Positions 42,546 through 58,737 of a stretch of 64,000 bases of DNA are shown here, in pieces (position 1 is the first letter of the stretch; each line of letters begins with the position of its first letter). A model generated the notes under the pieces. That model ran no database searches, was not told the origin of the DNA, and saw only the letters and a list, made by a program, of their open reading frames with translations. This DNA is from an uncultured bacterium (GTDB lineage Bacteria > Desulfobacterota > BSN033 > UBA1163), in the NCBI GenBank assembly GCA_938045955.1, contig CALIBK010000105.1, forward strand, positions 5,187-69,186. Reading direction: 5' to 3'. Position numbers and translations under genes: made by a program.

Positions 42546-43028
42546 TCATCTGCCTGGCCTCAAAAAATCGGCTATCCGTTTGGCGGCCTCTCGTTTTCTT
42601 TCTACATTTATAAGGTCTGCGTCTATGTAGCTCACAGCCTTTGGATTACAAAAAAGAACACACTGGGGATTGCCATCACAATAGTCACATTTACAGGTGA
42701 CCCGGTCGATAGGATCAAAGAAGGGGTGCCCGAAAGGACAGGCCATGATGCAAGTTTTGCATCCGATACATTTCTTGGGATCGATGACGACCCTTCGGTT
42801 TTCAAGATCTTTGTGACAGGCCTTGGTAGGACAGACCTCCGTGCAAATAGGTGTTTCACAGTGCTGGCAAACCATGGGGAGATAGAGTCCAACCTCTTCC
42901 CATTTAAGGATACGAATCCTTGAGCGGGTGGGATTGCTCACCCCGCTGTGGAAGACCGAACAAACCATCTCACAGTTTCGACATCCTGTGCATTTTTCAG
43001 GATCTACAAAAAGCACTTTTCCATGCAT
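42546..43028 (-). CDS. 4Fe-4S multi-cluster ferredoxin (DmsB/PsrB/HybA-type electron-transfer subunit, no Tat signal)
   Basis: 160 aa with four Cys clusters (CTGCRNCEMVC, CQHCETPICTEVCP, CIGCKTCIMACP, CKCDYCDGNPQCVLFC). Confidence 0.75.
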   Translation of the reverse strand: MHGKVLFVDPEKCTGCRNCEMVCSVFHSGVSNPTRSRIRILKWEEVGLYLPMVCQHCETPICTEVCPTKACHKDLENRRVVIDPKKCIGCKTCIMACPFGHPFFDPIDRVTCKCDYCDGNPQCVLFCNPKAVSYIDADLINVERKREAAKRIADFLRPGR

Positions 43029-43091: not shown

Positions 43092-44117
43092 CTATTTCTC
43101 TTTTAGACTTAGACGCCCCAAAAGATGTTGAGCCTCGATCCATCTCTCCATCGGAATCTGGTTCTTTACACCTGCCATGAGAATTCCGTAACGGAGGAGA
43201 AGTCCTCCAAGGAGAAGGGAGATCCCAGCAAACCAGACGAGAGCGGGATATTCAGGGAATCTGGAGAAAAAGGATTCCAGAATGAAAGGGAAGAGGAATC
43301 CCGAGAAGACGATCCCTAACCAGAAAAGAAGTTTCAGCTCCCCTTTTAAAAGAAGAGAGACGGAAAGTCCTCCCTGTGCCCCCTGATCATTTGTTTGATT
43401 CACCCGGTAAAGATAAAGGACCAGAACGATCCCTTCGATAATGATCAGAATCTGTTCGACTCCCATTAAAAATTTTATGAGTGAAGAAGAAAAGATTCCT
43501 TGAAGAAGGGTTCTTCCCATCCCAAGGATAAGCATCAATAGACTCATTGAACCGGTAGAAAGAGCGGAAATAAGGAAAAGCAATGGAAGGAGATAGGTGT
43601 TCCATAGAGCTACATGTTTTACCGATTTGAGGAGGATTCCTGTATAGAGGGCCGTCGCGAAAGCAAGGATCAAGGCAACCGTTTCCAGTCCCCTTATCCC
43701 ATCTGTTCCTATATAAGTTCTTAAGTCAGGGGAGAGGGAAAGGATCAGACTGATCAATCCAAATAGAATGAATGAGGAAAGGATGAGAAAACCCCTTGCG
43801 ACCCAGGAGGTTTTGGGATTTAAACAGGCGTAAAGAAATCTCCGTTTTATTCCGAGGTCGAGAATGAGGAAAGGGGCCCCGATTGCAACCAGAACAGGAC
43901 CCCAGAGAAGGGTGGCTTTGGCAATATCCAACTGGAGGGTGAACGGACGGATCTCCATAAGCTTCGTTGAGCCCGTAAACCAATGGATCAATGTCCCGAT
44001 GATGAATGAACCAGCTCCCATCCCTGCCAGGTAGAGATAAATTGCAATGATCCAGCCCCAGTGATGCTGAGGCTTTAGATGTCTTCCGATTCTTGAAGAA
44101 TTGAAAGACCCCGTCAT
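43092..44117 (-). CDS. NrfD/PsrC-family polytopic membrane protein (quinone-interacting anchor)
   Basis: Start set at MTGSF (ATG 44117, AAGGAG RBS); an upstream ATG at 44147 lacks an RBS. About 8-9 predicted TM helices, NrfD-like N-terminal WGWIIAIYLYLAGMGAGS. Confidence 0.65.
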   Translation of the reverse strand: MTGSFNSSRIGRHLKPQHHWGWIIAIYLYLAGMGAGSFIIGTLIHWFTGSTKLMEIRPFTLQLDIAKATLLWGPVLVAIGAPFLILDLGIKRRFLYACLNPKTSWVARGFLILSSFILFGLISLILSLSPDLRTYIGTDGIRGLETVALILAFATALYTGILLKSVKHVALWNTYLLPLLFLISALSTGSMSLLMLILGMGRTLLQGIFSSSLIKFLMGVEQILIIIEGIVLVLYLYRVNQTNDQGAQGGLSVSLLLKGELKLLFWLGIVFSGFLFPFILESFFSRFPEYPALVWFAGISLLLGGLLLRYGILMAGVKNQIPMERWIEAQHLLGRLSLKEK

Positions 44118-44291
44118 TTTTGATTCCACTCCTTTAGAGCTTCCCATTCAAGTTCTTCCCAATGAACAGGCAAATTATCTTTAAAATAATAGCATATCTC
44201 ATTATCTTGTCAAGATTAAATAACCTGTTAATTCCCAGTTAAACCTGATTTGACAATTCAATTGAAATCGGGTATTCTTAATTTGTTCAAT

Positions 44292-45071
44292 ATGATGAAC
44301 AGGCTTAAAAAGACCATCTATTCTGCTCCATCGGTGAAAAAGGCCTTCCGGATCCTAAAGGCCATAGCCGATTCTCCATCAAGACTTGGGGTAAGTGAGT
44401 TATCGAAACAGCTCAAGATAGGTAAAAGTACGGTCCATGGGATCACTATTGCGCTGGAGGAGTTGGGGGTCCTGGTAAGGGATCCCATCGATAAAAAATA
44501 CAGTATTGGATACCGGCTGATAGAACTCGGGAGAAAGGCTTATGGAAGAATCGAATTGAGAGAGATAGCAAGAATCCCTTTAGAAAGATTGGTTGAGGAG
44601 ATTGGGGAAACCGTATTTTTAGGAATCATGGATGGAGATCATATCCTGATTCTGGACGTGGTGGAGCCTCCCAGTGAAATGAAGATTACCTCTCCACCCG
44701 GCACAAGGCTTCCCCTTTTAGCAGGCGCCACAGGAAAGGCCTTTCTCAGTCTCCTTGAAGAAGAGAAGGCAAAAGATATTGTTCAAAAGATCGGGTTAAG
44801 AGGTTATACCCATAAGTCGATCACCGACCCCAAGCGGTATTTAAAGGAGGTTAAAGAGACGAAAGAGAGAGGCTATGCGATTGATGATGAGGAGTACTTG
44901 ATCGGTGTTCGAGCCATTGCGGCTCCTTTACCTATACCTTCCTCTCCTCTTTCAGCCATCTGGCTCGTTGGATTCTCCTCGCGACTGACTGACCAAAAGA
45001 TGGAGAAGGCCATAAAAGAGATCCTTAAGACCGTCCAAGAAATCATCCATTCCTTTGAGATCTACTCCTGA
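44292..45071 (+). CDS. IclR family transcriptional regulator
   Basis: HTH LGVSELSKQLKIGKSTVHGITIALEELGVL followed by an IclR effector-binding domain; the ORF opens with a TTG at 44250, and ATG ATG at 44292 is a plausible start. Start uncertain. Confidence 0.7.
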   Translation: MMNRLKKTIYSAPSVKKAFRILKAIADSPSRLGVSELSKQLKIGKSTVHGITIALEELGVLVRDPIDKKYSIGYRLIELGRKAYGRIELREIARIPLERLVEEIGETVFLGIMDGDHILILDVVEPPSEMKITSPPGTRLPLLAGATGKAFLSLLEEEKAKDIVQKIGLRGYTHKSITDPKRYLKEVKETKERGYAIDDEEYLIGVRAIAAPLPIPSSPLSAIWLVGFSSRLTDQKMEKAIKEILKTVQEIIHSFEIYS

Positions 45072-45103: not shown

Positions 45104-45136
45104 CCTCACCGATTGAGGGATTATAAGTTTTTTAAG
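45104..45136 (+). terminator. candidate intrinsic terminator after iclR-family gene (convergent with TRAP permease gene)
   Basis: Stem CCCTCA/TGAGGG (45104-45109 / 45115-45120), loop CCGAT, followed within 8 nt by GTTTTTT. Confidence 0.3.
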
Positions 45137-47084
45137 TTTCCTTGGCTCTTCTTCCTATGAAAGGAATAGAAATCTTAACATATTTTTGACTTAATAATCC
45201 TAATCCAATTAAACCTAATCCAATTAGATCTGAAATTCCAGAGGGATGGAGGACTCCCAATCCCCCTGCGAAAAAAAGGACTCGTTCTAAGGGTGTAGTA
45301 GGTTTTAAAAAATGTCCCATGACAGATGCTTCAAGAGGGAACATAGCCAAAATAGCTAAGATGGCCATTCGAATCACATCTAATGGATGTCCCTTCATTA
45401 AAAAGACTGGATAGAAAACAAAAAAGAAGGGCATGATATAGCCTCCGATCCCTAATCGAATCGAAATCCAGGCGGTTCGTAGCCAATTGGAACCAGCAAT
45501 CGCAGCAGCCGTAAAGACCGCGATACATACCGGAGGGGTAAGACCTGATTTGATGGCAAACCAGAAAATAAAAAGATGGCCGGCAAGAGGAGGGAGCCCC
45601 AATCCTTCAAGGGCAGGGCCTAACACTGCGGCTGCAATCACATAAGCAGCGGTTGTCGTCATCCCCATCCCTAAGATGATGGCACAGATCATAGTGGCTA
45701 AGAGGGCAAGGAAGATATTGACTCCAGCAAGAGACATAATAATCTCGGAAATCTTTACACCAAAGCCCGTCAATGAGATCATGGTAACAGCCATCTGCAC
45801 ACAGCTCATCATAACCATAAGCCAGGCGAGTGCCGAAGTGATTCCTCTAAAATAGGCTTCCGATATAATTTTAATCCTCTCCCAGGCATTTTTGAGTGTT
45901 AAAGGGCCTCCAAGGAACATAAATAAGATCATGGCTGCTATCAATGACCAGGCGGCACAGATTTGCGGGGGGATGTACATAAGGAGAAGGATAATAAGTA
46001 TTCCGATTGGTATGAACACAATCACCAATTGCTTAGGAGCAAAGACTTCCCTAAACTTTGGGATGAGCTCACGAGGCAGTTTGCCTAACCCATACCTTTT
46101 TGCTTCCACATAGATTCCTGCCCATACACCCGCATAATAGACTAGGGCAGGAATCACAGCAGCAAGCATGACCTCAAGGTAGGGGATATTGAGAAATTCT
46201 GCCATTACAAAGGCGCCAGCCCCCATAATTGGAGGGGTAATCTGACCTCCGGAGGATGCCGAAGCCTCAATGGCTCCTGCAAACTCTGGTTTATAGCCCA
46301 CCTTTTTCATTGTAGGAATGGTGAAGGAACCCGTCGTTGCAACATTGGCTACCGAGGAACCCGATAGCATTCCGAAAAAGGCACTTGAGACCACAGCAAT
46401 CTGCCCTGCTCCTCCTGTAAAACGACCCCCTGTAAATTTAGCAATATCCATGAATCCTTTACCTACACCCACAGCAAATAGAACAGGACCGAAAATAACA
46501 AAAAGTGCGATGACTCGGCTGGTGAGATCGGTAAGTAATCCCCAAATCCCTTCGGTCATTAGGTAGAGTTGATAAAAAATTTCAGCATAGTGATACCCAG
46601 CATGACCAAAAAAGCCCGGAATATACTGTCCTGTGAGGGCATACACCAGAAAAAGGAGGACAAGAATTGGAATAGCTTTACCCAGTGCCCGTCTCGTTCC
46701 TTCAAGGAGAAGGATAATTAATATGATCCCTAAAACCAATTGATAATTTTCGTAGCGTCCAACTGCACGGGCTACCGCTTCCCATGAAATCATAATATAG
46801 ATGCAAGGGATTACAGAAAGGATCAGAAATAAGATATCCATCCAAGAGGGGGAGTCTTTGGTGCCATAGAGAAATCTATCTTTCCATGAGGTGGCTTTTT
46901 CTGGTAGATGTCTACTATTGATTGGATAGAGGAGAAAGACAAGGGCCAATCCAAAGGCCAGAGAGACTCCTCCTTGAAGAAGAGGGTGGAGGGCAATGGT
47001 AAGAGCCGTATAAAGTAGAAAGATTGACCAGCAACCGACCAGTATAGAAGCCAGTATTTTCCATCCTCTTGAAAGCTCCCTCAT
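45132..47084 (-). CDS. TRAP transporter fused permease (4TM/12TM fusion, TAXI type)
   Basis: 650 aa, about 16 TM helices; RBS AAGGAG; lies between a TAXI solute receptor gene and an IclR regulator gene. Confidence 0.8.
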   Translation of the reverse strand: MRELSRGWKILASILVGCWSIFLLYTALTIALHPLLQGGVSLAFGLALVFLLYPINSRHLPEKATSWKDRFLYGTKDSPSWMDILFLILSVIPCIYIMISWEAVARAVGRYENYQLVLGIILIILLLEGTRRALGKAIPILVLLFLVYALTGQYIPGFFGHAGYHYAEIFYQLYLMTEGIWGLLTDLTSRVIALFVIFGPVLFAVGVGKGFMDIAKFTGGRFTGGAGQIAVVSSAFFGMLSGSSVANVATTGSFTIPTMKKVGYKPEFAGAIEASASSGGQITPPIMGAGAFVMAEFLNIPYLEVMLAAVIPALVYYAGVWAGIYVEAKRYGLGKLPRELIPKFREVFAPKQLVIVFIPIGILIILLLMYIPPQICAAWSLIAAMILFMFLGGPLTLKNAWERIKIISEAYFRGITSALAWLMVMMSCVQMAVTMISLTGFGVKISEIIMSLAGVNIFLALLATMICAIILGMGMTTTAAYVIAAAVLGPALEGLGLPPLAGHLFIFWFAIKSGLTPPVCIAVFTAAAIAGSNWLRTAWISIRLGIGGYIMPFFFVFYPVFLMKGHPLDVIRMAILAILAMFPLEASVMGHFLKPTTPLERVLFFAGGLGVLHPSGISDLIGLGLIGLGLLSQKYVKISIPFIGRRAKET

Positions 47085-47125: not shown

Positions 47126-47530
47126 TTATGGAATCACACTGATGTTAAAAGTGGCCATACTCCCTTTATTCCCCATTGCGGTAATTTTATAGTTCCCCTT
47201 GGGGGTTTTAACAGGAATTCCAGATTTCACTTCGAATGCTCCCTTATCATTGGCTACGATGACATCTTCTTTTTCGGTCCCTAAGCTATGGTGAACCTCA
47301 CCCACGGTCATGATCACCTCCACTTCTTCGCCAGGGAGAAATTGGTAGCCACTGATAAAAATGACCGCACCGGCTTGGGCGGTGGTGGGCATTACTGAAA
47401 GGGCTGCCTGTCGTTCTTTTGGTTCTTTTTGTTCTTTTGGTGCTTTTGGAACACAGGCGAAAAGATAAAGCAGAATAAAACAAAAGATGATAGCCATTCC
47501 CCTGTAGATCCAATTATATTTTTTTTGCAT
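47126..47530 (-). CDS. small membrane-anchored/exported protein of unknown function (possibly the DUF1850-type accessory protein often found with TAXI-TRAP systems)
   Basis: 134 aa; single N-terminal TM/signal (AIIFCFILLYLFACV), strong RBS GGAGGGAGG; position between TAXI receptor and permease. Confidence 0.35.
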   Translation of the reverse strand: MQKKYNWIYRGMAIIFCFILLYLFACVPKAPKEQKEPKERQAALSVMPTTAQAGAVIFISGYQFLPGEEVEVIMTVGEVHHSLGTEKEDVIVANDKGAFEVKSGIPVKTPKGNYKITAMGNKGSMATFNISVIP

Positions 47531-47574: not shown

Positions 47575-48579
47575 TTATTTTACTTCCGGTGGGATTAACT
47601 CAGGTGGTATATTTTGCCCTATCTCACGATAAAATTTCACAGCCCCGGCATGAAAAGGAACTTTCAGGCCAAATTTAATGGCATTTCCTACCATATCATC
47701 AAATTTTCCTTCTTTAAGTGTAGCGAGAGGAGCCACCATAGCGGCCCGGTTTTCCCATATCGCCTTCACAATTTTATAGACCACATCATCAGGGACATCC
47801 TTACGGACAAAATCACTAATCACGTAGGCATAACTGAGCTGGTCCTGAGTGACCGCTTTAAATAATCCTGCTGGAATCGTCATACTTCGATGTAAACCCG
47901 GCTGGACTTTTTCGGCTTTTTCCATAAGTTCCTTTGTCACAGGGACAATTGTAATTTCCATGGCAGCTTCAATGTCAAGAATTGCCGCATCTTTAAAACC
48001 TGCTTTAAACCAACCATCGACTACACCCGCTTTCATGGCATCTGGACTTGCTCCTAAACCCATCAGTTTGTAGTTAGGTTTGATCCCAATAGCTTGCATA
48101 AAATACTCCATATGCCATCCAGAAGTGGTACCTGGGTTCATGGCAAAGGTTCTACCCTCGAAATCTTCCACTCTTTTAATTCCGCTTTTTTTGCTGGCAA
48201 CTAAATGAATCGGGGTAAAGTAACCTCCCCATAAGGTCCTCAAGTTTTTATCCGGTTTATCTTTCCAATCCAATATGCCTAAATAACTGGCTGCACCAGC
48301 CCCGGTACTTGCGGGACCAGCATGAATTGTTCCTCTTCGGAGTCTCTCGAGGTTTTCCACATATCCACCCGTCTCAACGACGGTCACGATGATATCCCCG
48401 GGATAAGCCTTATTAATAATCCCGGCCATAGCGACTGTGTTAGCATAAAGTCCTGATCGGACACTGGTGGAACCGAATTTAAAACGGAAAGGGGCTGCGT
48501 TTACGTCCGAAAAATGGAATACAATAACTATGAAAATTGATAAGCTTAATATACAAAAAATAAAATTTTTCTTTACCAT
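47575..48579 (-). CDS. TAXI-family TRAP transporter solute-binding protein
   Basis: 334 aa with signal peptide; TAXI-type fold hallmarks (GSTSVRSGLYANTVAMAGIINKAYP...VVETGGYVENLERLRRG); RBS GAAAGGAGG. Confidence 0.8.
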   Translation of the reverse strand: MVKKNFIFCILSLSIFIVIVFHFSDVNAAPFRFKFGSTSVRSGLYANTVAMAGIINKAYPGDIIVTVVETGGYVENLERLRRGTIHAGPASTGAGAASYLGILDWKDKPDKNLRTLWGGYFTPIHLVASKKSGIKRVEDFEGRTFAMNPGTTSGWHMEYFMQAIGIKPNYKLMGLGASPDAMKAGVVDGWFKAGFKDAAILDIEAAMEITIVPVTKELMEKAEKVQPGLHRSMTIPAGLFKAVTQDQLSYAYVISDFVRKDVPDDVVYKIVKAIWENRAAMVAPLATLKEGKFDDMVGNAIKFGLKVPFHAGAVKFYREIGQNIPPELIPPEVK

Positions 48580-48757: not shown

Positions 48758-51034
48758 TTACCTCTCTCTCTTTTCAAGGGCTTCGAGAACCTTATCCGGG
48801 GTCACGGGAAGGGTCTTAAACCTCACTCCTATTGCATCGTAGATGGCGTTCACGATAGCTGGAGCTGGAGAAAGCTGAGTTCCTTCTCCCGATTCCTTTG
48901 CTCCAAAAGGGCCTTCAGGATCATTTGTCTCCACCTCAATGGATTCAATTGAGGGAATCTCCATGGCCGTGGGGATTCCATAATCGAGGAAATTCGGATT
49001 GAGGACCTGGCCTTTCTCCATGATTATATTCTCATAAAGAGCCTGACCCATTCCTCCAACGACAGAGCCTTCTAACTGTCCTTCCACAAGCATTGGATTG
49101 ATCGCCTTTCCACAGTCGTGGGCAGTCACCATCTTTAAAACTCTAACTCTTCCCGTTTTTGGATCCACCTCTACCTCTGCGGCTTGGGTCATAAAGGAAT
49201 AAGCGGGGGAGAAGTTTCCATCCTCGTGAAGAAGGGTGGTTGGTTCCTTAGCCGGTGGAAAGTAGGATCCCCTTCCAATGATGGGCATGGGGCGATCGGA
49301 GTATTGATAGATCTTAATAGCCTCCTCAAATGAGAAACCACGATCAGGGTTCTCCCTCAAAAAGATTCTTCGATTCTTCATCTCAAGCTCGCCTGGACTT
49401 ACTTCCATCTTCTCTGCAATCGCTTCGAGAAGTTTCTCCTTTGCTGCCCGGGCTGCCATTCGGGCGGCATTTCCGGCCCTCAATGTAACACCGCTCCCAA
49501 AGGTTCCTGGATCGAGAGGAGTAATCTCTGTATCGGCCGCGGTAATTCGAATATCCTCAATTCGGACCCCTAACTCCTCAGCTACAATCTGGGAGATCAC
49601 CGTCTCTGCTCCCTGGCCAATATCCGCTGCCCCTGTTAGTAAAGTAACGGAACCATCTCTCTCGATCTTGACAATAGCGCCAGAGGAGATATGACTCATA
49701 TTGCTCACACCGCTTGGAAAACTGGCTCCAGCCAGACCCACTCCCCGTCCGAAAGGAAGTTTTCCTCTCTTTTCCCTCCACCCGATGGCCTCTGCGGCCT
49801 TCTTTAAGGTCTCACTGAACCCACAACTCTGAACCAGGAGTTTTGCTGGGTGAGGTTCTCCAGCCTGAAAGGCATTCTTTAGCCTGAGCTCAAGAGGATC
49901 GATCCCTATCTTTTCGGCGATGATATCGAGCTGAGTTTCTACCGCAAATCGAACCTGTGGAATTCCATGTCCCCTCATAGCTCCTCCGACAGGTTTATTC
50001 GTATAGACATGATACCCCTCAAAGAGAAGATTTTCGATACGATATGGAAGCATGATGAAGAAACAGGCCAGCGTGATCATCAGGGGGGCTGTGCTGTTAT
50101 AGGCTCCTCCGTCGGCAATGACTCTAAATTGCTGCGCAAGGATGGTCCCATCTTTTTTCACTCCCGTCTTTAAGTAGATATACATAGGATGACGTTGACG
50201 GGTACAGGTGAAGACTTCCTCTCGGTCATAGACAAACTTCACAGGCCTTCCGGTTCTCATGGCAAAGAAGGCTGCACAGAAGTCTTTGGCATAAAGATCA
50301 ATCTTCTGACCAAACCCCCCTCCCACTTTGGGTTTGATAATTCTCACTTTACTTTCCGGGAGATCGAGGGTGGTTGCCAGGTTCCTCCTGAGAAAGAAGG
50401 GAATCTGGGTAGAAGACCAGAGGGTGACTTTTCCAAAATGGTCCACCATGGCCAGAGCAGCCTGAGGCTCCATCGGGCAGTGATTCACAGGCTGAGTTTC
50501 AAAATGGTCCTCAAAAATAAAGTCAGAGTCTTTAAAGGCTTTCGCCACATTTCCAAATTCCTTTCGAATGGTGGCGCTCACATTATCAGGAACCTCTTCG
50601 TGAATGATGGGGGCCCCTGGTTTCATTGCCTCCAGAGGATCAAAGACCGCCGGGAGTTCTTCATATTCGACTTTTATCCTGGAGATGGCTTCTTCGGCTG
50701 CTTCAGGAGAGGTGGCTACCACCGCTGCCACTTCGTCCCCAATATAGCGAACCTTTTCAATCGCAAGGGCATACTCATCCTTTGCCTTCGGGACGATTCC
50801 ATATTTTCGTTTAGGGATGTCTCTGCCACTGATCGCATCTTTCACACCCGGAACTTTTAAGGCTTCTGTAAGGTCGACTTTAAGGATTTTGGCATGGGGC
50901 AGGGGGCTTCGAAGAATCTTTCCAAAGAGCATTCCCGGTAATGAAAGATCATCGGTATATTTTGCTTTTCCGGTTGCCTTTTCCCATGCATCAAGCATGG
51001 GTTCTCGTTTTCCAACCACATTAAACTCGCTCAT
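48758..51034 (-). CDS. xanthine dehydrogenase-family molybdopterin-binding large subunit (aldehyde oxidoreductase / 4-hydroxybenzoyl-CoA reductase alpha-like)
   Basis: Start chosen at MSEFNVVGKREPMLDA (ATG 51034, AGGAG RBS), the canonical family N-terminus. Family motifs GGGFGQK, AHDCGKAINP, and a C-terminal glutamate region. Confidence 0.8.
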   Translation of the reverse strand: MSEFNVVGKREPMLDAWEKATGKAKYTDDLSLPGMLFGKILRSPLPHAKILKVDLTEALKVPGVKDAISGRDIPKRKYGIVPKAKDEYALAIEKVRYIGDEVAAVVATSPEAAEEAISRIKVEYEELPAVFDPLEAMKPGAPIIHEEVPDNVSATIRKEFGNVAKAFKDSDFIFEDHFETQPVNHCPMEPQAALAMVDHFGKVTLWSSTQIPFFLRRNLATTLDLPESKVRIIKPKVGGGFGQKIDLYAKDFCAAFFAMRTGRPVKFVYDREEVFTCTRQRHPMYIYLKTGVKKDGTILAQQFRVIADGGAYNSTAPLMITLACFFIMLPYRIENLLFEGYHVYTNKPVGGAMRGHGIPQVRFAVETQLDIIAEKIGIDPLELRLKNAFQAGEPHPAKLLVQSCGFSETLKKAAEAIGWREKRGKLPFGRGVGLAGASFPSGVSNMSHISSGAIVKIERDGSVTLLTGAADIGQGAETVISQIVAEELGVRIEDIRITAADTEITPLDPGTFGSGVTLRAGNAARMAARAAKEKLLEAIAEKMEVSPGELEMKNRRIFLRENPDRGFSFEEAIKIYQYSDRPMPIIGRGSYFPPAKEPTTLLHEDGNFSPAYSFMTQAAEVEVDPKTGRVRVLKMVTAHDCGKAINPMLVEGQLEGSVVGGMGQALYENIIMEKGQVLNPNFLDYGIPTAMEIPSIESIEVETNDPEGPFGAKESGEGTQLSPAPAIVNAIYDAIGVRFKTLPVTPDKVLEALEKRER

Positions 51035-51115
51035 CTTAGATACTCCTGTATGGGTGATAAAGATTGTCATGAAGGACAGTGAATGATAAGAATTCACTCT
51101 TATTCACAATAGCCC

Positions 51116-51592
51116 CTATTCACCTCTCGATTCTCTCCCGCTTGCTGATAAAATGGCTTCGACAATCTTCACATAACCGGTGCATCGACAAAGGTTTCCA
51201 GAAATCGCCCTCTTTACCTCTTCCTCTGAGGGATGAGGATTTTCTTCTAAGAAGGCCTTTGCCGTAAGAATCATCCCTGGGGTACAGAAGCCACATTGGA
51301 TTGCTCCTTTTTCAATAAAAGCGTTTTGGAGAGGGTGAAGCTTACCATTCTGTGCCAGACCCTCAATGGTGGTGATCTTTTTCTTTTCCACAGCCACGGC
51401 CAGGGTAAGACAAGAAAGCCATGGCCTTCCATCCACAAGAACGGTACAGGCCCCGCAGGTCCCAAGATCGCATCCTCTTTTTGTTCCTGTCAGGCCAAGA
51501 TCCTCTCTTAAGACTTCGAGAAGGGTTTTATGACCTTCAACCAGGATTTCCAAATCCTCTCCATTTACGTTGAGTTTAAGAATACGTTTCAT
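51116..51592 (-). CDS. [2Fe-2S]-binding small subunit of XDH-family enzyme (CoxS/HcrC-like)
   Basis: ATG 51592 (MKRILKLNVNGE) with AGGAG RBS; plant-type ferredoxin motif CDLGTCGACTV and second cluster motif CGFCTPG...CRCTGY. Confidence 0.85.
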   Translation of the reverse strand: MKRILKLNVNGEDLEILVEGHKTLLEVLREDLGLTGTKRGCDLGTCGACTVLVDGRPWLSCLTLAVAVEKKKITTIEGLAQNGKLHPLQNAFIEKGAIQCGFCTPGMILTAKAFLEENPHPSEEEVKRAISGNLCRCTGYVKIVEAILSASGRESRGE

Positions 51593-51662
51593 AATCACTC
51601 CTGTATTTTCTCTCTTTCCCCATTCCTGTTCACTCTTAGTGTTTAAAATTTCGTTTCGAATT

Positions 51663-52640
51663 TCAATTTATCCACTTGAGTCTATCAAGCCCTTCTCGTA
51701 AAAGTATTCCGGCCATCTTTCTTTTATAGGCCGGGGAGTAGATAGACGTCCTCATAGGAGAAACCGTTTGAGGAACCTCCCGGGATAGAGAATCTATGAT
51801 GGAATCATCGAGGGTTTTTCCGATAAGCATCTTTTCAATTCCAGAAGCTTCTACTGGACCCTCTCCCACTCCGCTGAAGACCACCCTTGCCAGGCTTATC
51901 TTATTATCTTCTTTTTCAATATAAAGAGCTAATGAGACGATCGGGAATTCAATCGATCCTCTCCATCTCCATTTGAGGTAAACTCCTTTCCCGGAGGATT
52001 GAGGCACTATGACTTCTTTAATGATCTCTCCTTTCCTTAAGGAGAGGGGTTTTTTACCATTAAAAGAATAGAGTCTTTTTAGAGGAAAGATCCTTTCCCC
52101 TTGAGGACCTAAAACTTTAACCCGCGCACCCATTGCAATGAGAGCGGGAGCCAGATCTCCGCAATAGGTGGAATGACATTCCCTGGGCTTTTTTATGACA
52201 TGGCAGATCTCTCCTCCCGCCTTGAAGCAAGGGGGTCTTACGCTTCGCCAGAAAGGAGACTGATTATAGAAACGACATCGGTTCCCCTGACATAGGTTTC
52301 CTCCGACCGTTCCCATGACCTGATGGGCATAGGCTCCGACCTCTCTGGCTGCGTGAGAAAGAATCGAAAATTTTTCCTGAATCAAGGGGGAGGTATATAG
52401 ATCGCGAAGAGAGGTGAGTACCCCGATTCTTATCGCTTCTTTCTCTTCAATTATGTAAGAAAGTTTTGGAATGGATTTGAGATGAATAATTCTTGCGGGC
52501 GTTATGACTCCGAATTTCATATTCACCAGAAGATCTGTTCCTCCAGCCAAAAGGTAGGTTCCTGATGGATCAGCGGAAAGATTCTTTACCGCTTCTTTCA
52601 AGGATTTCGGTTCAATATATTCAAATTTTGGAAGTCGCAT
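51663..52640 (-). CDS. FAD-binding subunit of XDH-family enzyme (CoxM/HcrB-like) with Cys-rich insertion
   Basis: 325 aa; FAD-binding domain LLAGGTDLLVNMK; unusual six-Cys insertion GNLCQGNRCRFYNQSPFWRSVRPPCFKAGGEICHVIKKPRECHSTYCG. Confidence 0.8.
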   Translation of the reverse strand: MRLPKFEYIEPKSLKEAVKNLSADPSGTYLLAGGTDLLVNMKFGVITPARIIHLKSIPKLSYIIEEKEAIRIGVLTSLRDLYTSPLIQEKFSILSHAAREVGAYAHQVMGTVGGNLCQGNRCRFYNQSPFWRSVRPPCFKAGGEICHVIKKPRECHSTYCGDLAPALIAMGARVKVLGPQGERIFPLKRLYSFNGKKPLSLRKGEIIKEVIVPQSSGKGVYLKWRWRGSIEFPIVSLALYIEKEDNKISLARVVFSGVGEGPVEASGIEKMLIGKTLDDSIIDSLSREVPQTVSPMRTSIYSPAYKRKMAGILLREGLDRLKWIN

Positions 52641-52664: not shown

Positions 52665-53966
52665 TCATTTGATTAAATTTGGCAAAATGAGGGCGAGTTT
52701 CGGGAAGAGGATTAATATTCCCGCATTAATCAACAGGGCTACCAGAAAAGGGAAGATCCCTTTAAAGATCGTCTCCAGAGGTATCTCGGGGGCAATTCCC
52801 TTGATGACATAGACATTGACTCCTACCGGCGGTGTAATCACACCCATCTCACTTACAAGCACAATAATCACACCAAACCAGATCGGATCAAATCCGAGCC
52901 TGAGCACGACAGGGAAAATCACCGGCACGGTGAGAACCACCAGGGCCATCGCATCCATAAAACAGCCCCCGATGAGATAAATCAGGATGATGACCCCCAT
53001 AATGGCAACAGGATGGAGAGGGAGCCCAGCAATCCAGTCCGCCAGAATAAAAGGGATCGTCGAGACTGCCATGAAGTGGCCGAATACCGTAGCCCCGGCA
53101 ATCACACAAAGAACCATGCAGGAGGTTCTCAGCCCATCCAGGGTTGAATCGATGAACCCCCTCAAACGGATCTCCCTCCTCATCAAGCCAATCCCCAAGG
53201 CTCCAGCAGCCCCAATCCCCCCGGCCTGGGTGGGTGTAAACCAACCGAGAAAGAGGCCTCCGATTACCAAACAGAAAAGAACCAGAGCTTCCCCTATCCC
53301 AATAAGAGCCTTCATCTTCTCTCTGAGAGTGGTCGAAGGACCTGCAGGAGCACATTCCGGCTTTCGCCAGCAGAGGATCCCCACCGTAAGAATGAAAAGA
53401 AAGACGAGGATTATCCCTGGAATGATTCCAGCCACGAAGAGCTTCCCGATGGATTGCTCCGTAATAATCCCATAGACCAGAAAGATTGTGCTCGGAGGGA
53501 TGAGAATCCCCAGTGTCCCCGCACTTGCCACACACCCTGTGGCCAGCGTATCATCATATTTATACTTTTTCATCTCCGGGAGGGCCATCTTCCCGATGGT
53601 AGCCGCAGTGGCAGAGGTTGAGCCACAAATCGCTGCAAAGAACCCACAGGCGACCACCGTGGCCATCGTTAATCCCCCACGAAGCCCTCCCAAGATCGTA
53701 TAGGCGGCTTCATAGAGCCTCCTGCCAATCCCTGAGGCAAAGGCAAAAGAACCCATGAGAATAAACATCGGAATTGCACTTAAAGGAAAGCTGAAAAACT
53801 GCTCGAAGAAATCTCGGGCAAGAAGTCTAAGCCCTGCCTTCAAGGTAGAAAGATACGAGAAACCCAGGAACCCCACAAAGGCCATTGCAAAGGCCACAGG
53901 CATTCGAATGAGAAAGAGCAAAACAAGCAAAAGGATTCCAAAGATACCCACATTAACGGGATCCAT
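52665..53966 (-). CDS. dctM: TRAP transporter large permease (DctM)
   Basis: ATG at 53966 (MDPVNVGIFGILLLVLLFL) matches the DctM N-terminus; the track begins at an upstream TTG. 12-TM profile. Confidence 0.85.
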   Translation of the reverse strand: MDPVNVGIFGILLLVLLFLIRMPVAFAMAFVGFLGFSYLSTLKAGLRLLARDFFEQFFSFPLSAIPMFILMGSFAFASGIGRRLYEAAYTILGGLRGGLTMATVVACGFFAAICGSTSATAATIGKMALPEMKKYKYDDTLATGCVASAGTLGILIPPSTIFLVYGIITEQSIGKLFVAGIIPGIILVFLFILTVGILCWRKPECAPAGPSTTLREKMKALIGIGEALVLFCLVIGGLFLGWFTPTQAGGIGAAGALGIGLMRREIRLRGFIDSTLDGLRTSCMVLCVIAGATVFGHFMAVSTIPFILADWIAGLPLHPVAIMGVIILIYLIGGCFMDAMALVVLTVPVIFPVVLRLGFDPIWFGVIIVLVSEMGVITPPVGVNVYVIKGIAPEIPLETIFKGIFPFLVALLINAGILILFPKLALILPNLIK

Positions 53967-54441
53967 CTCCAAAGACCTCAAAAAGGGATTCGATCGTCTC
54001 TATAAAGAAGACCAGACAGACAGGAAGGCAACAGAAGGCTATGAAGTAGGCAAATGGATAGTAGGGAAGGTGAGAGGTTGAACCGATCTCCCCAGCCTCT
54101 TGAAGAGACCTCCCGTAGAGAAGACTCTGCCAGAGAAGAAATACAAAAAGGATCAATGAAAGGAAAGAGCTGAAGCCACTGATCCCGGCCCGAATTCGCC
54201 TTGGAAAACGATCGAGAATAAATTCGACCCGAATATGTCGACCCATAAGAAGGGCCATGGCGATGGTCGAAGCAATCGCCATAATTTGAGAAAAACCGAT
54301 GAGCTCCGTCGCCCCGGGGACGGGCCAAAGAAAAAGTTTCGCCCCAATCACATCGATCAGATTCACCAGGAACATTAAAAGGAGCCCGATCAATCCCACC
54401 CATTCGAGGGATTGACTGAACCTCCTGGTCCACCCTTCCAT
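53953..54441 (-). CDS. dctQ: TRAP transporter small permease (DctQ)
   Basis: 162 aa, 4 TM helices, positioned between dctP and dctM; overlaps dctM start. Confidence 0.7.
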   Translation of the reverse strand: MEGWTRRFSQSLEWVGLIGLLLMFLVNLIDVIGAKLFLWPVPGATELIGFSQIMAIASTIAMALLMGRHIRVEFILDRFPRRIRAGISGFSSFLSLILFVFLLWQSLLYGRSLQEAGEIGSTSHLPYYPFAYFIAFCCLPVCLVFFIETIESLFEVFGDGSR

Positions 54442-54526
54442 GAATGAAACCTCTTGATAGAGGATTCTTGTAGCCTTTCCCTTTCTCCTTTCTTGCTACA
54501 AGGAGAAAGGGAAAGAATCGCGATGA

Positions 54527-55594
54527 TTATTTGATGCGAACTTCGGAAGGACCGGTTGAGGATTTCACTCCCAACTCTTTCTGCTTCTTCGTCCAATACT
54601 CGATCCGCATTCGAGCATAATTGATCAACTCCCGGGTCTCTTTCTCCGAATATCCCGCTGCCACCATCGATTTCACATACTTGTCCAATACAGGCTCCAC
54701 CGCCTTTTTCCACTTGGTAATCTCCTCACTCGGAAGCTCAATGAATTGCAGACCCTTTTCCTTTCCATACTGCTTTCCATCAATGTCCACCTCATTCCAC
54801 ATCGTCGCCAGCTTCTCCTCAAAAGGATATTCACTCAATATCTTTTTCAGCTCCGGTGAAAGTTTGTTCCAGGCCTCCTTATTCATAATCAAATAAAAGG
54901 TATAGACCTGACCGATCGGCCAACACTCCGTTACATATTTAGCCACCTCTGCATACCGAAAAGCCCTCATCGTCTCCATCGGAATCATTAATCCATCGAT
55001 CACCTTCTTCTGCATCGCTTCATAGGCTTCAGGGGTAGGAATGGGTCGAGGGGTTGCCCCCAGGGCTGTGACCACTTCTGCTATAAAACCCAGGCCCCTT
55101 AACGTCATCCCTTTTAGATCCTCCATCTTGTAGACTGGCTTTGTGGCTGAAAGGACGACATTGACAGGACTTGTATGCATCGAAAGTATATGAACCTTAT
55201 CCCATTCCTTCGGCTTAAATTCTCTGATAAAATCATTGGCCACATGATTAGCCACCCAGGCATTCGGAAACCCCAGAGGGAGATCCAGGGTTTCGGTCAT
55301 CCGGAAGCGCCCAAAGGTATAACCAATGTTGGAGAAGCCAATGTCCGCAATCCCTTCAACCACCCCATCATACATTTTCGGGGCCGTCAACAGGGTCCCT
55401 GCCGGAAAATAACGAATCTTTAATTCTCCTTTGGAGCGGGCCTCCAGATCCTTGATGAATTCCTCACAGATCTTGGACTGCCGAGCAGGAATCGGAAAAT
55501 AATTGCAGAATTTTAACTCCACGGCTCCCCAAACAAAGGAAGGCAAAACCATCACGAAAAGAATGAATCCAACGAGCAGTCTCTCCTTTTTCAT
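54527..55594 (-). CDS. dctP: TRAP transporter solute-binding protein (DctP family)
   Basis: Start set at MKKERLLVGFILFVMVLPSFVWGA (ATG 55594, AAGGAGGTG RBS); DctP-family fold. Confidence 0.8.
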   Translation of the reverse strand: MKKERLLVGFILFVMVLPSFVWGAVELKFCNYFPIPARQSKICEEFIKDLEARSKGELKIRYFPAGTLLTAPKMYDGVVEGIADIGFSNIGYTFGRFRMTETLDLPLGFPNAWVANHVANDFIREFKPKEWDKVHILSMHTSPVNVVLSATKPVYKMEDLKGMTLRGLGFIAEVVTALGATPRPIPTPEAYEAMQKKVIDGLMIPMETMRAFRYAEVAKYVTECWPIGQVYTFYLIMNKEAWNKLSPELKKILSEYPFEEKLATMWNEVDIDGKQYGKEKGLQFIELPSEEITKWKKAVEPVLDKYVKSMVAAGYSEKETRELINYARMRIEYWTKKQKELGVKSSTGPSEVRIK

Positions 55595-55955
55595 ATGAAA
55601 TCCACCTCCTTTTTGAATTTTATCCATCCTAAAAATTTTTAATTCGTAATCTTATTCCTCCTCACCTCCTTTCCGGATAAAGGCCTGTTCAATAACCCAC
55701 AAATCATTGTGAGACAGGATTTCGCAGGGACATCAATTTTTTATTTATCGCAGTCTGTCATTCCGTGCTGGACACGGATTCCAGGGCTTCCCATGAAAAC
55801 GGGAATCCAATTCCTAATATTTCCCTGACTTCGCACCTCGTACTTGATACGGGGCTGAATTCCTGCTCCCTGCTTAAGACCTGCAGTGACAATTTTCACA
55901 GGAATGACGCCTTAAACCCCCTCTGTTATTGGAAACCTCAGAGAAGGTTTCCTCC

Positions 55956-57647
55956 TTAGGGTTTGATTTTTCCTTCTTGAATCAACTTTTCCGTGATGAT
56001 CTGCTTCAACCTTTTTTTATCCACTTTTCCAACGTTGGTCAAGGGGAATTCGTTCAGAATTTCAATTCGTTCAGGGAGATAGATCACGGAAGTTTTCTTA
56101 TCCTTTAAGAAGGAGATGATCTCTTCAAAAGTGATCGTTTCCTCCGTTCGGGGTTTGATGAAGGCACAGATTCGTTCCCCAAGGATAGGATCGGGCATGG
56201 GAACCACCGCCACTTGCTCGATCTTGGGATGGCCGATCATTAAATTCTCCACTTCTTTTGCACTGATATTCTCCCCGCCTCGAATGATGATCTCCTTCTT
56301 CCGACCTGTAATGATCAAATGACCTTCCCGATCAAATTTCGCAATGTCCCCGGTTCGATAAAACCCGTCGGGGGTAAAGGCCTCTCGATTTTCCTCTTCA
56401 GATTTATAATAACCTCGAAAGATACAGGGCCCTCTGGCCACCAGCTCTCCCTCTGTTTCGGGCGGGAGGAGATTTCCATGGGAATCGATCACTTTAAATT
56501 CATCATAGGGGCAGATGGGCCACCCTACCGTGTGAAGGACGATCTCTTCCGGGTCTTCCAATCGGGTCTGAGAGCATGGACCTTCGGAGCTGCCATAGAC
56601 ATTATAAAATTTACATTTTAATTTTTTATAAATTTTTTTAATCGTTTCAGGAGGGATAGAAGAGCCTCCGGTAGCGATCACATGAAGAGAGGATAGATCG
56701 TACTGGTCGAGTTCAGGTGAATCCACAATCTGTTGGACCTGAGCCACTGCGAGGATGGTCGTCGTAATCCTCTCCCTCTCAATGGTCTCCAGTATGTCTT
56801 TAGGATGGGTGGAGGGAATGATGACCACTTTTCCCCCCGTAAGGAGGGTGGGATTTAAGGAAACCTCGATGGCCATGTTATGAGTGAGGGGGGTTGCAAT
56901 TAGGGTAATATCGTGAGGGCTCCGCTGCCATGCCTTAGCCCGGTATTCTATATTGCAATAAAAATCGTTATGGGTCCTCGGGACTAATTTTGGAAATCCA
57001 GTCGTTCCCCCGGTAGGCATCAAATGACATATTTCATTCGGGTCGGGTTTAAAAGATTCAAGATAATCCTCTGGATATTTGCTCGGATCGACTTCGGCTA
57101 AAATTTTATTGAAGGATATTGTTCCCTCGGGGATCGATTTCCCTTTCTCCTGAGATGAGTCGATGACTAAAATATATTTTAATGAATAAGGATGAGATTT
57201 TATGGCAGAAATGATGGGTTGATAATCTATCTTTTCAAACCGAAGGGGAACGATCCAGGCCTTCGCCTCAGTGATTTCGCAGAAATATTCTATCTCCCTC
57301 TGAGAAAATCGAGGAATACACATGACAGGAATTGCCCCGATTTTGTGAAGCCCATAATATGCAAAAACAAATTCGGGCCAGTTCGGGATCTGAAGAAGGA
57401 CTCGGTCAAATTTCTCGATGCCTAACTCGAGAAAGGCAAGGGCTGTGCGGTTGACCTTTTCTTGAAGTTCCCGATAGGTGAGTCGAACGCTGCCGGCGAC
57501 AAGGGCCTCCTTATAAAAATAGAGATCGGCACTCCGGTCAAGCATTTCTCCGAGAGTGATTCCCAACCACCAGTGATTTTTGTAGTATCGCTCAACAAAT
57601 TCTTCTGGAAATGGAATGGTTCCGGGTAAGGTCATCGAAGTGACCAT
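55956..57647 (-). CDS. AMP-dependent synthetase/ligase (aryl-CoA ligase-like; 2,3-dihydroxybenzoate-AMP ligase / cyclohexanecarboxylate-CoA ligase family)
   Basis: 563 aa; AMP-binding motifs MPTGGTTGFPKLVPRTH, YGSSEG, and a C-terminal lysine region (GKVDKKRL). Confidence 0.8.
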   Translation of the reverse strand: MVTSMTLPGTIPFPEEFVERYYKNHWWLGITLGEMLDRSADLYFYKEALVAGSVRLTYRELQEKVNRTALAFLELGIEKFDRVLLQIPNWPEFVFAYYGLHKIGAIPVMCIPRFSQREIEYFCEITEAKAWIVPLRFEKIDYQPIISAIKSHPYSLKYILVIDSSQEKGKSIPEGTISFNKILAEVDPSKYPEDYLESFKPDPNEICHLMPTGGTTGFPKLVPRTHNDFYCNIEYRAKAWQRSPHDITLIATPLTHNMAIEVSLNPTLLTGGKVVIIPSTHPKDILETIERERITTTILAVAQVQQIVDSPELDQYDLSSLHVIATGGSSIPPETIKKIYKKLKCKFYNVYGSSEGPCSQTRLEDPEEIVLHTVGWPICPYDEFKVIDSHGNLLPPETEGELVARGPCIFRGYYKSEEENREAFTPDGFYRTGDIAKFDREGHLIITGRKKEIIIRGGENISAKEVENLMIGHPKIEQVAVVPMPDPILGERICAFIKPRTEETITFEEIISFLKDKKTSVIYLPERIEILNEFPLTNVGKVDKKRLKQIITEKLIQEGKIKP

Positions 57648-57657: not shown

Positions 57658-58737
57658 CTATTTAAAGGTGGATTTTACAATATCACCGGGGCTGAAGTCG
57701 TTTCCTTCCACTCTCTTTGCAATGGCAGCATCGACCCCGAAGAGTTCTTGAACTCTTACTAAACCCTTAAGTCTTCCCGTCGTCCAACCAAGGGAGAGGT
57801 GAGTAGTGGGATGAATGATCTCCTTTCCAGGCTCATAGACCTCAAGATGGTCTCCTACCCGAAGCCCCGAGAGCTTCCCTGCGTTAAGGAAGAGGGTTTC
57901 TCCTTCGATCTTTGCAATGGTCGTACTCCATTCAAGATAATCTAAATATCTCAGGAGGCCATCCAGGGTGTCTTCAAGGGCGAAATCAATCGCTTTCGTT
58001 ACCGCTTTGCTCCGGCTATACTCTCCGGTTTCTTTCGTTCCAAAGATGGGACTTCGTCCAATAAAGGTTTTTAGAAGATTTCCTGTGGAGGCATCGACCA
58101 GCCGAACCTCTACCTTGGCCGTTGCAAAAGAGACCTCTTCTTCAGAAGCTTCAGAGGTTTTTGAGGAAAGAAGGCTAACGTCCATCACTGATCCATAAAG
58201 GACGGCCTGGATTCCATAGGAGCGATGGGCTCGTTTAATAAATTCAAGATTCGAGAGGCTTTCAAAAGAGAGTCCCTCTCGACGAAGCATCTCTAATATT
58301 GCATTTCGATCTATCAGAACTACTCTCTGGGAAGCTTCCAGTTTGTCGGAGAGTCGTTTGGCTACGGTTTCGCCAATCTTCTCTTCTTTATAGGTGGTTT
58401 TATTTTCAAAGTCTAAAATAATGACCTTTTTCTTTAAACCCATCTGAAAGTAAGGAAGGGGAGATCCATAGAAGGGACGACTCGGAATAGATGCGATCTT
58501 TGAATCAGGTTCTTTCCTGATTGGTGGAGGAGGAGAGGGTTTGCTCGGAGGAGGAGTTTCGGCGATCTGAGGATTCACCCCTTTAATCGTTTCCAATCCT
58601 TCAACCCTGACGGTTTTACCCTCCGGAAGTTTTTCTTCTGACCTCTTTTTCCCGATCAATGGAAGATTTGCACAGCCATTTAGAAAAAAAATTAAAAAAA
58701 GAGAGATTACAAAAACTTCAACAATTCTATTTTTCAT
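57658..58737 (-). CDS. CsgG-family-like outer-membrane lipoprotein with Pro-rich linker and extra C-terminal domain
   Basis: Lipobox FFLNGC; Pro-rich PPPSKPSPPPPIRKEP; CsgG-like block KKVIILDFENKTT...VAKRLSDKLEASQRVVLIDRNAILEM; RBS AAGGAG. Confidence 0.5.
   Translation of the reverse strand: MKNRIVEVFVISLFLIFFLNGCANLPLIGKKRSEEKLPEGKTVRVEGLETIKGVNPQIAETPPPSKPSPPPPIRKEPDSKIASIPSRPFYGSPLPYFQMGLKKKVIILDFENKTTYKEEKIGETVAKRLSDKLEASQRVVLIDRNAILEMLRREGLSFESLSNLEFIKRAHRSYGIQAVLYGSVMDVSLLSSKTSEASEEEVSFATAKVEVRLVDASTGNLLKTFIGRSPIFGTKETGEYSRSKAVTKAIDFALEDTLDGLLRYLDYLEWSTTIAKIEGETLFLNAGKLSGLRVGDHLEVYEPGKEIIHPTTHLSLGWTTGRLKGLVRVQELFGVDAAIAKRVEGNDFSPGDIVKSTFK

Follow-up and report, generated by a model that had tools for sequence, protein, structure and literature searches.

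An Hcr-like molybdenum enzyme with an HcrB-type [4Fe-4S] loop in uncultured Desulfobacterota: probably a reductive aryl-CoA enzyme, of a clade distinct from 4-hydroxybenzoyl-CoA reductase

We have analysed a stretch of 64,000 nucleotides (hereafter the window; contig CALIBK010000105.1 of assembly GCA_938045955.1) from an uncultured bacterium of the Desulfobacterota, and within it an operon of three genes whose products resemble the subunits of 4-hydroxybenzoyl-CoA reductase (HcrABC; abbreviated 4-HBCR). In our opinion, and judging from sequence, the operon probably encodes a cytoplasmic molybdenum-flavin-iron-sulphur enzyme of the Hcr class that removes a substituent reductively from the ring of an aryl-CoA. 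The enzyme and its near relatives (below, the query clade) make up a distinct and strongly conserved Hcr-like clade that was found in uncultured bacteria only, and whose substrate pocket seems to differ from that of the true Hcr enzymes. At the level of the family, the original prediction made from this DNA had essentially read the locus correctly.

All three subunits match the Thauera 4-HBCR (1RM6) best among solved structures, which bears out the earlier claim of a three-subunit enzyme of the xanthine dehydrogenase family. Their lengths of 758 (alpha), 325 (beta, the FAD subunit) and 158 (gamma) amino acids fit the plan of 4-HBCR (about 770, 324 and 160), as had also been said; the 759 then given for alpha was a trivial off-by-one. 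The starts that we chose (52640, 51592 and 51034) are backed by ribosome-binding sites and by homology. For gamma, the mechanical open reading frame (ORF) begins at an upstream GTG and has 160 amino acids, against 158 from the ATG at 51592, while alpha has 779 in the mechanical ORF, 770 according to public gene callers and 758 from the ATG at 51034.

The best match of the FAD subunit in the PDB is the Thauera chain 1rm6_B (E=4e-56; 34% identity to Thauera HcrB in BLASTP), and the alignment runs ungapped across a cysteine-rich loop which the original prediction had described as lacking in ordinary CoxM-type proteins. Indeed, the CoxM-type chains 1ffv_C, 1n5w_C, 4zoh_B, 7dqx, 1t3q_C and 3hrd_C cover only residues ~1-120 and 160-317 of the subunit, so that about 40 residues between these parts are an insertion relative to them. 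The segment quoted at the time, GNLCQGNRCRFYNQSPFWRSVRPPCFKAGGEICHVIKKPRECHSTYCG, comprises residues 114-161 and holds six cysteines (117, 122, 138, 146, 155 and 160). When the loop is searched alone, HcrB residues 113-173 are matched with no gaps at E=1e-18, whereas the loops of PaoB (5g5g_B) and 5y6q_B need several gaps and reach E=0.09. Both the position of the insertion and the spacing of its cysteines agree with HcrB: query Cys122, Cys138, Cys146 and Cys155 coincide with the identically numbered HcrB cysteines, which we take to be the cluster ligands, as reported by Unciuleac et al. 2004.

An exhaustive search with the FAD subunit over 1.84 billion cluster representatives returned 591 at E<=1e-30, each standing for a cluster at 50% identity. 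When the query, Thauera HcrB and the best 150 of these 591 are aligned, the four cysteines are present in 152 of 152 sequences and the loop has the same length in 119 of 152, in a set that is biased to loop-bearing proteins because the loop itself adds to the search score. The query's 50-residue segment GGNxC...C...C...C...C...GD is common to all of these best 150 of 591. Since the loop alone matches HcrB ungapped at such an E value and its four cysteines are invariant, the segment is not a product of chance. The other two cysteines behave differently, C117 being mostly conserved across the family and C160 being at least 90% conserved inside the query clade but C, S, H or Q in the wider family; on this alignment the 'six-Cys' insertion appears to consist of four ligands and two accessory cysteines. 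The nearest FAD-subunit clusters, when looked up, gave generic pipeline names only and no cultured organism. In an AlphaFold2 model of the subunit the FAD-binding core is confident and again finds 1rm6_B first in Foldseek (TM 0.77), but the model is uninformative for the predicted cluster site, since residues 103-161 have a pLDDT of 23-43.

The gamma subunit finds 1rm6_C at E=8e-54. It shares 58% identity with Thauera HcrC (BLASTP) and has its eight [2Fe-2S] cysteines at positions identical to those of HcrC (41, 46, 49, 61, 100, 103, 135 and 137). It starts level with HcrC residue 1, with neither an N-terminal extension nor a Tat signal, while PaoA of the periplasmic PaoABC aligns only from residue 63; hence the enzyme is predicted to be cytoplasmic, unlike PaoABC. 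The alpha subunit matches 1rm6_A at E=4e-165 to 2e-165 (554 bits; the next chain, a CoxL, reaches 381 bits) and is 39% identical to Thauera HcrA (BLASTP). We placed its residues through alignments to CO dehydrogenase (CODH) and quinoline oxidoreductase (Qor). Q210 aligns with CoxL Gln240, R352-G-H354 (query AMRGHG) occupies the position of the CODH active-site loop AYRCSFR, and E717 aligns with the catalytic glutamate, CoxL Glu763 and Thauera Glu726. With eight [2Fe-2S] cysteines, an FAD domain with the four-Cys loop, the glutamine, the Arg-Gly-His loop and the glutamate all present, the Hcr-type cofactor-binding and catalytic scaffold appears to be complete. The enzyme does not fit an aerobic CO dehydrogenase (CoxLMS), as the query loop AMRGHG has no counterpart of the Cu-binding Cys388 in VAYRCSFR and the CoxL models score far under their cut-offs.

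According to the reading that we prefer, an aromatic carboxylate would enter through the adjacent TRAP systems and the DhbE-like ligase next to them would turn it into the CoA thioester, after which the Mo centre would strip a substituent from the ring position ortho or para to the thioester; this would most likely be a hydroxyl, though an amino group is possible. Electrons would travel 'backwards', as in 4-HBCR: a low-potential donor would hand them to the [4Fe-4S] loop, from where they would pass by way of FAD and both [2Fe-2S] clusters to Mo. The original prediction had proposed just such a sequence of aromatic-acid uptake, CoA activation and reductive dehydroxylation. The gene context supports this course of events in outline, and the hedge 'or a related reductive reaction' in that prediction fits best; 4-HBCR as such is not established. 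The linkage to the TRAP genes is tight (dctM ends 24 bp before the hcrB-like gene), the aryl-acid ligase lies further upstream, and the host lineage is of a strictly anaerobic type. In addition, non-orthologous CoA ligases and CoA-ester enzymes recur beside the operon in related loci, which speaks for a CoA thioester as the substrate.

The ligase of the window, of 563 amino acids, has as its closest PDB matches DhbE (1md9, E=2e-122) and a salicylate-AMP ligase (5wm2, E=4e-113), and it scores 422 bits on TIGR02275 against a cut-off of 724. The Asn at DhbE Asn235 is kept, while the equivalents of Tyr236 and Ser240 are changed. In the structure of DhbE the ring hydroxyls are bound by Asn235 and Ser240, the ortho-hydroxyl by Asn235. 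By these alignments the protein appears to be an activator of aryl acids.

The original prediction had further taken HcrB to be the only characterised bearer of such a loop, and here it has to be corrected. A [4Fe-4S] motif of four Cys is also present in the FAD subunit of PaoABC, a periplasmic aldehyde oxidoreductase that works oxidatively (PMC13404670), and PaoB and 5y6q_B align at the same place. Because that loop sits in an oxidative enzyme, a [4Fe-4S] loop by itself is no proof of the reductive direction. It is conceivable, although we consider it unlikely, that the query is an oxidative Mo hydroxylase or dehydrogenase of the PaoABC or furoyl-CoA dehydrogenase type, with an aldehyde, an N- or O-heterocyclic acid or the CoA ester of such an acid as its substrate; electrons would then leave through the loop, for ferredoxin or for a neighbouring NrfD/polyferredoxin module. 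Enzymes of the xanthine oxidase (XO) family are mostly oxidative, anaerobes use XO-family hydroxylases with ferredoxin as acceptor, and both PaoABC and the Methylobacillus aldehyde oxidase carry their Cys loop at this very site. The syntenic NrfD-like protein and cytoplasmic polyferredoxin would be suited to deliver electrons to quinone, and in relatives an aldehyde:ferredoxin oxidoreductase (AOR) follows this module. Yet the loop is of the HcrB type by the loop-only E values given above, alpha scores 554 bits to Hcr against at most 381 bits to any oxidative member, the small subunit has no Tat signal, and the recurrent CoA-ligase neighbours fit the logic of Hcr. The PaoC and PaoA models are far from being reached (337 of 1180 and 164 of 322 bits), and with no Tat extension either, we rejected a periplasmic aldehyde oxidoreductase of the PaoABC type.

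There is also a second reductive enzyme known in the XO family, urolithin C 9-dehydroxylase (UcdCFO/Ucdh), which has no [4Fe-4S] loop and depends on NADH (PMC11760930; bioRxiv 10.1101/2025.01.17.632430). Its nearest characterised relative is 4-HBCR, and several members of the query clade have no ligase within 10 kb, so one might think of the query as a reductive dehydroxylase of a free phenolic instead of a CoA ester. We regard this as very improbable: the query has the loop that UcdC lacks, the sole Clostridiales relative recovered is only 37% (alpha) and 26% (beta) identical, and ligases or CoA-ester enzymes adjoin the operon in most loci with enough flank.

A number of observations weigh against the reductive aryl-CoA reading, or against its special case 4-HBCR, and we set them out together. 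The catalytic direction is not readable from sequence, as the oxidative enzyme with a loop illustrates. The DhbE-like ligase and the TRAP genes are confined to the subclade of the window and are, for that reason, less telling on the substrate of the clade as a whole. A small dedicated ferredoxin (a stand-alone CxxCxxCxxxCP protein) was not found in the 64-kb window, and neither were the benzoyl-CoA pathway genes bcr/bam, dch/had/oah or pps/ppc. The AOR-family neighbour of the relatives is nearer to true aldehyde oxidoreductase than to BamB. The gene order B-C-A, constant throughout the query clade, differs from that of Thauera and Geobacter.

The remaining points of this kind concern the distance from the validated enzymes. 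Among the NCBIfam equivalogs for Hcr, TIGR03194 (alpha) and TIGR03195 (beta) rank first for their subunits and TIGR03193 (gamma) second, but all cut-offs are missed widely (777 of 994.55 bits for alpha, 269 of 404.55 for beta, 204 of 257.8 for gamma). A search with Thauera HcrA listed 120 matches that are 74-94% identical, from Alpha-, Beta- and Gammaproteobacteria and also from metagenome-assembled genomes (MAGs) of Actinomycetota, which NCBI names 4-HBCR alpha; a search with the query alpha listed 120 matches that are 72-100% identical, for which NCBI gives only 'molybdopterin-dependent oxidoreductase'. Mean alpha identity is 84% inside the query clade and 78% inside the true Hcr clade, but 39% between them (range 36-41%); the 39% of the query to Thauera stands against at least 74% inside the true clade among the matches listed. 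A strictly anaerobic lifestyle does not explain this value, because Geobacter, a strict anaerobe with an operon organised identically to that of Thauera and of 'high similarity' (PMC1924859), and several phyla keep a Thauera-like Hcr. In a neighbour-joining tree of the FAD subunits the query and Thauera HcrB fall in different sub-clades, with 75 of the 150 cluster representatives nearer to the query than Thauera HcrB is. By these comparisons the query alpha appears to lie outside the tight clade that holds the validated 4-HBCR enzymes, and we would describe the enzyme as belonging to a distinct paralogous Hcr-like clade, not as a clear orthologue of Hcr.

The two clades also differ at positions that align with residues binding the substrate in related enzymes. 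In the alpha alignment, 318 columns reach a conservation of 95% or more in each of the two clades; 131 of them differ in residue between the clades, and these cluster in segments that form the active site of other family members. After the catalytic Gln the query clade has STQIPFFLRRNL and the true Hcr clade TTQVPYYVHLKV; at the GGGFG motif, GGGFGQKI is set against GGGFGART; the flank of the catalytic Glu reads SGEGTQL against ASEGMLA. The region aligned with Qor Trp331 is NSTAPLMITL (P317) in the query clade and AGYGIITILY (I321) in the true Hcr clade, and the region aligned with Qor Tyr545/Ala546 is DPGTFGSG (F512/G513) as opposed to DNGSYSSR (Y521/S522). The differing positions aligned with these Qor residues, those around the GGGFG motif and those flanking the catalytic Glu are fixed in each clade. 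We assume here for Trp331 and Tyr545/Ala546 the roles reported by Bonin et al. 2004. Taken as they stand, the differences suggest that the pocket of the query clade may be reshaped relative to true Hcr, the positions having been placed by alignment to related enzymes.

How should 4-HBCR proper then be judged? The earlier assignment holds at the level of the family, the best solved relative of the enzyme being 4-HBCR, but the identity as 4-HBCR is called into question by the missed cut-offs, by the 39% and 34% identities of alpha and beta and by the differing pocket-aligned residues. It is nevertheless the single likeliest substrate assignment, and we treat it as a real possibility that we would hesitate to adopt. 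4-HBCR is the closest characterised homologue of all three subunits, and JGI/KEGG-style pipelines already label clade members as alpha and beta of 4-HBCR. Moreover, 4-hydroxybenzoate is a common acid derived from lignin, phenol and tyrosine in the peat, soil and groundwater habitats of the MAGs, and the high conservation inside the query clade (~84%) is compatible with a common substrate. The phenol-induced gene cluster of Desulfatiglans anilini, in which the same types of ligase are combined with Hcr-like genes, points the same way.

It is possible, though we say so tentatively, that the query clade is instead the gene set for another reductive aryl-CoA dehydroxylase or deaminase, acting on some other hydroxy- or aminobenzoyl-CoA. 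In that case the syntenic NrfD-like protein and cytoplasmic polyferredoxin would feed electrons in place of a soluble ferredoxin, and the kept DhbE-type Asn would indicate an ortho-hydroxylated benzoate. Activities in need of an enzyme do exist: for the reductive dehydroxylation of gentisyl-CoA, which is sensitive to oxygen and possibly tied to the membrane, no enzyme has been characterised (PMC3727088). The phenol-induced cluster of D. anilini shows the component set of the present locus, in that a PaaK-like ligase is joined there by small and medium 'CODH' subunits, by a 4-HBCR alpha and by a phenol-induced 2,3-dihydroxybenzoate-AMP (2,3-DHB-AMP) ligase of unknown function (PMC6114531); other Hcr-like paralogues of this organism are induced by aniline and 4-aminobenzoate, and a 4-aminobenzoyl-CoA reductase has been proposed (PMC7500099). 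Because these paralogues respond to phenol in one case and to aniline and 4-aminobenzoate in another, more than one aryl-CoA must be served by the Hcr-like family. As orthologues of the query they are not close, since none is among the 120 best matches listed (alpha at least 72% identical).

To see how far the clade extends, one genome per GTDB species was scanned. This gave 22 close relatives with alpha 82-96% identical, all of them uncultured MAGs of 'Syntrophaceae', Thermodesulfobacteriota or Deltaproteobacteria, and no cultured isolate carrying the enzyme in that scan; the isolate labels of the MAGs point to peat, soil, groundwater and deep-mine or deep-subsurface sources. Related loci are given L-numbers here, and synteny was compared within 10 kb of the operon. 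The conserved block consists, in order, of an FG-GAP protein, a 562-aa protein without assignment, a 359-aa lipoprotein, a variable slot, the hcrB-C-A-like genes and a second variable slot, and it continues with a divergent IclR gene, an NrfD-like membrane protein, a 160-aa polyferredoxin and sometimes an AOR. The variable slots hold a DhbE-like ligase and DctPQM in the window, L010, L011 and L027, PaaK-like ligases in L006/L023, L007, L017 and L018, and a fused enoyl-CoA hydratase/3-hydroxyacyl-CoA dehydrogenase in L008, L017, L020 and L031; elsewhere Liv-type ABC or TAXI-TRAP transporters and an FdhA-like molybdoenzyme are found in them.

Table 1. Features of the operon and its surroundings in the window (positions are those of the window; aa, amino acids).
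Feature	Position	Strand	Remarks
HcrB-like FAD-binding medium subunit	51663-52640	minus	325 aa; GGGAGA ribosome-binding site upstream
Cys-rich insertion, FAD-subunit residues 114-161	52158-52301	minus	predicted [4Fe-4S] ligands C122, C138, C146, C155; extra C117, C160
2x[2Fe-2S] subunit (gamma)	51116-51592	minus	158 aa; ATG start with AGGAG before it
HcrA-like molybdenum-cofactor large subunit (alpha)	48758-51034	minus	758 aa; ATG start with AGGAG before it
DctM	52665-53966	minus	Pfam; end 24 bp upstream of the hcrB-like gene
DctQ	53953-54441	minus	Pfam
DctP	54527-55627	minus	Pfam; TRAP transporter block 52665-55627
Aryl-acid adenylating enzyme / putative aryl-CoA ligase, DhbE/salicylate-AMP-ligase-like	55956-57647	minus	563 aa
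TAXI-family TRAP binding protein	47575-48579	minus	TIGR02122 and NMT1_3
Fused TAXI permease	45132-47084	minus	DctM domain
IclR-family regulator	44250-45071	plus	divergent; Pfam HTH_IclR and IclR_C
NrfD-like membrane protein	43092-44147	minus	Pfam NrfD
Four-cluster polyferredoxin	42546-43028	minus	160 aa, no Tat signal; Pfam Fer4_11; DmsB/HydN/PadI-like in NCBIfam

The neighbours in the window are listed in Table 1; a PaaK-like ligase and a MerR regulator also flank the operon, so that the TRAP transporters, the two types of ligase and the IclR and MerR regulators named in the original prediction are all there. The DctPQM arrangement recurs in L001, L010, L011 and L027. The IclR regulator has syntenic counterparts of 62-71% identity in L006-L009, L019, L020, L023, L026, L028, L030 and L031. 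The NrfD-like protein and the polyferredoxin, the latter being the only ferredoxin-like gene near the operon, are syntenic with it in 9 of the 14 related loci that reach far enough downstream; we regard them as a candidate module for electron transfer that may serve the enzyme. Low-potential electrons could also come from the HdrA-, NuoEFG- and ETF-like modules that the window carries. Between the TAXI binding protein and its permease lies a 134-aa ORF (47126-47530, minus) with a lipoprotein-like N-terminal signal (…LFAC), which has no family match and is not conserved in related loci.

In L006 (15024-22280), L007 (17623-22146), L023 and L030 the NrfD-like protein and polyferredoxin are followed by a 646-aa AOR of the tungsten type, and the three together may form a membrane-anchored AOR complex. 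The place after the polyferredoxin is taken in the window by a MoeB-like gene (41764-42507), the AOR gene being missing there. As a link to class II benzoyl-CoA reductase this AOR-family gene was discarded, for it matches 1aor at E=1.6e-94, better than BamB (4z3w, E=5e-60); NCBIfam holds no model for BamB. In L004, L005, L007, L012 and L018 an FdhA-like protein of the DMSO-reductase family (666-686 aa) lies directly downstream of the hcrA-like gene in convergent orientation; it looks cytoplasmic, scores 398 bits on the model for formate dehydrogenase alpha, short of the cut-off, and could be an electron-donating partner or be unrelated.

Two loci deserve separate mention. In L002 (10001-15575) and L003 (1430-7004; GCA_040961015.1 / GCA_040961035.1) the B and C subunits are as query-like as those of other members (63% and 78%), but the A subunit is only 45-48% identical and has 795 aa, with Hcr alpha as its best model (680 bits). 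Genes for a FadD/malonyl-CoA-synthetase-like ligase and for an amidohydrolase of the adenine-deaminase-like kind flank the operon there. The close B and C beside a divergent A suggest that the catalytic subunit has been swapped on a conserved module, in other words that one electron-transfer module has come to work with more than one kind of catalytic subunit.

We also considered the 359-aa protein (57658-58737) as a fourth subunit, and rejected it: its lipoprotein signal (…FLNGC, lipobox LNGC) and faint CsgG-like match place it in an envelope module. Its companions in L004, L007 and L008 are an FG-GAP/CsgG-like protein and a protein of 510-560 aa that has a faint match to an outer-membrane barrel. 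That this module is syntenic with the operon is explained by the narrow taxonomy of the clade.

Other parts of the window may be described briefly. A redox cluster (13486-28832, minus; GC skew strongly negative, -0.2 to -0.4) encodes an HdrA2-like protein of 644 aa, which scores 830 bits on the HdrA2 model, a GltD/HdrA-like protein of 747 aa, an acyl-CoA dehydrogenase, ETF alpha and beta, a NuoG/FdhA-like protein of 834 aa, NuoF-like, NuoE-like and HdrD-like CCG proteins and, at its end, a second acyl-CoA dehydrogenase together with a 3-hydroxyacyl-CoA dehydrogenase. The set resembles a supercomplex for acyl-CoA oxidation in which electrons would be bifurcated or confurcated by way of flavins. 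As a conserved partner of the enzyme this Hdr/Nuo/ETF/acyl-CoA-dehydrogenase cluster (13-27 kb) was rejected, being absent within 10 kb of the operon in every related locus; at most it would be a generic source of reduced ferredoxin. Next to it, 5909-13478 (minus) is a module for the degradation of branched or side-chain acyl-CoA, with an acyl-CoA dehydrogenase, two DUF35/ChsH2-type OB-fold proteins paired with two SCP-x-type thiolases, a B12-binding subunit, a methylmalonyl-CoA-mutase-like large subunit and an ATP:corrinoid adenosyltransferase. At 60227-63716 (minus) a 684-aa fusion of an N-terminal QmoC-like membrane part, a 4Fe-4S dicluster and two CCG domains (HdrD/TfrB-like) adjoins a second NrfD-like membrane protein, and it is syntenic in L010 and L011. 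An AddAB-type pair, a PD-(D/E)XK nuclease of 389 aa and a UvrD-like helicase-nuclease of 1109 aa, is found at 73-4568 (plus).

What is new here has to be stated with care. Because some pipelines already annotate the clade as '4-HBCR', this is no new kind of enzyme, and the novelty lies in the distinct clade. The HcrB-type [4Fe-4S] loop marks hundreds of clusters at 50% identity, and the biochemistry is known for the Thauera-type clade only. Hence automatic labels of '4-hydroxybenzoyl-CoA reductase' probably over-assign one substrate across the loop-bearing family, which may cover several anaerobic dehydroxylation and deamination activities that have long been known without a gene. Knowledge of the substrate of this clade would permit a better metagenomic reading of the turnover of aromatic and lignin-derived carbon in anoxic soils and sediments.

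The closest known systems are HcrABC of Thauera aromatica (1RM6/1SB3), HbaBCD of Rhodopseudomonas palustris and Gmet_2134-2136 of Geobacter metallireducens. With Thauera HcrABC the query shares the three-subunit plan and sizes, the length and Cys spacing of the loop, the [2Fe-2S] cysteines and the Gln, Arg-Gly-His and Glu residues, and with Hcr systems in general the predicted cytoplasmic location and an associated aromatic-acid CoA ligase. It departs from them in that its ligase is of the DhbE type, not of the HbaA/HcrL type, in its identities of 39% (alpha), 34% (beta) and 58% (gamma), in the order B-C-A, and in its hosts, which are uncultured Syntrophaceae/Thermodesulfobacteriota only. PaoABC of E. 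coli (5G5G) and the Methylobacillus aldehyde oxidase (5Y6Q) are XO heterotrimers whose FAD subunit has an extra four-Cys [4Fe-4S] motif inserted at the same position. However, PaoABC is oxidative, periplasmic and Tat-exported, its loop differs in length and sequence, and alpha reaches 235 bits there against 554 bits to Hcr. UcdCFO/UcdhABC of Enterocloster, for which 4-HBCR is likewise the nearest characterised relative, removes a hydroxyl para to an electron-withdrawing carbonyl, but it does so with neither the loop nor a CoA ester, and in gut Clostridia. In D. anilini (phenol cluster H567DRAFT_02049-02059; ani and hcr clusters 03875/03876 and 03202/03203) the likeness extends to the setting, for there too a strictly anaerobic host of the Desulfobacterota keeps Hcr-like genes beside ligases of the PaaK-like and 2,3-DHB-AMP types.

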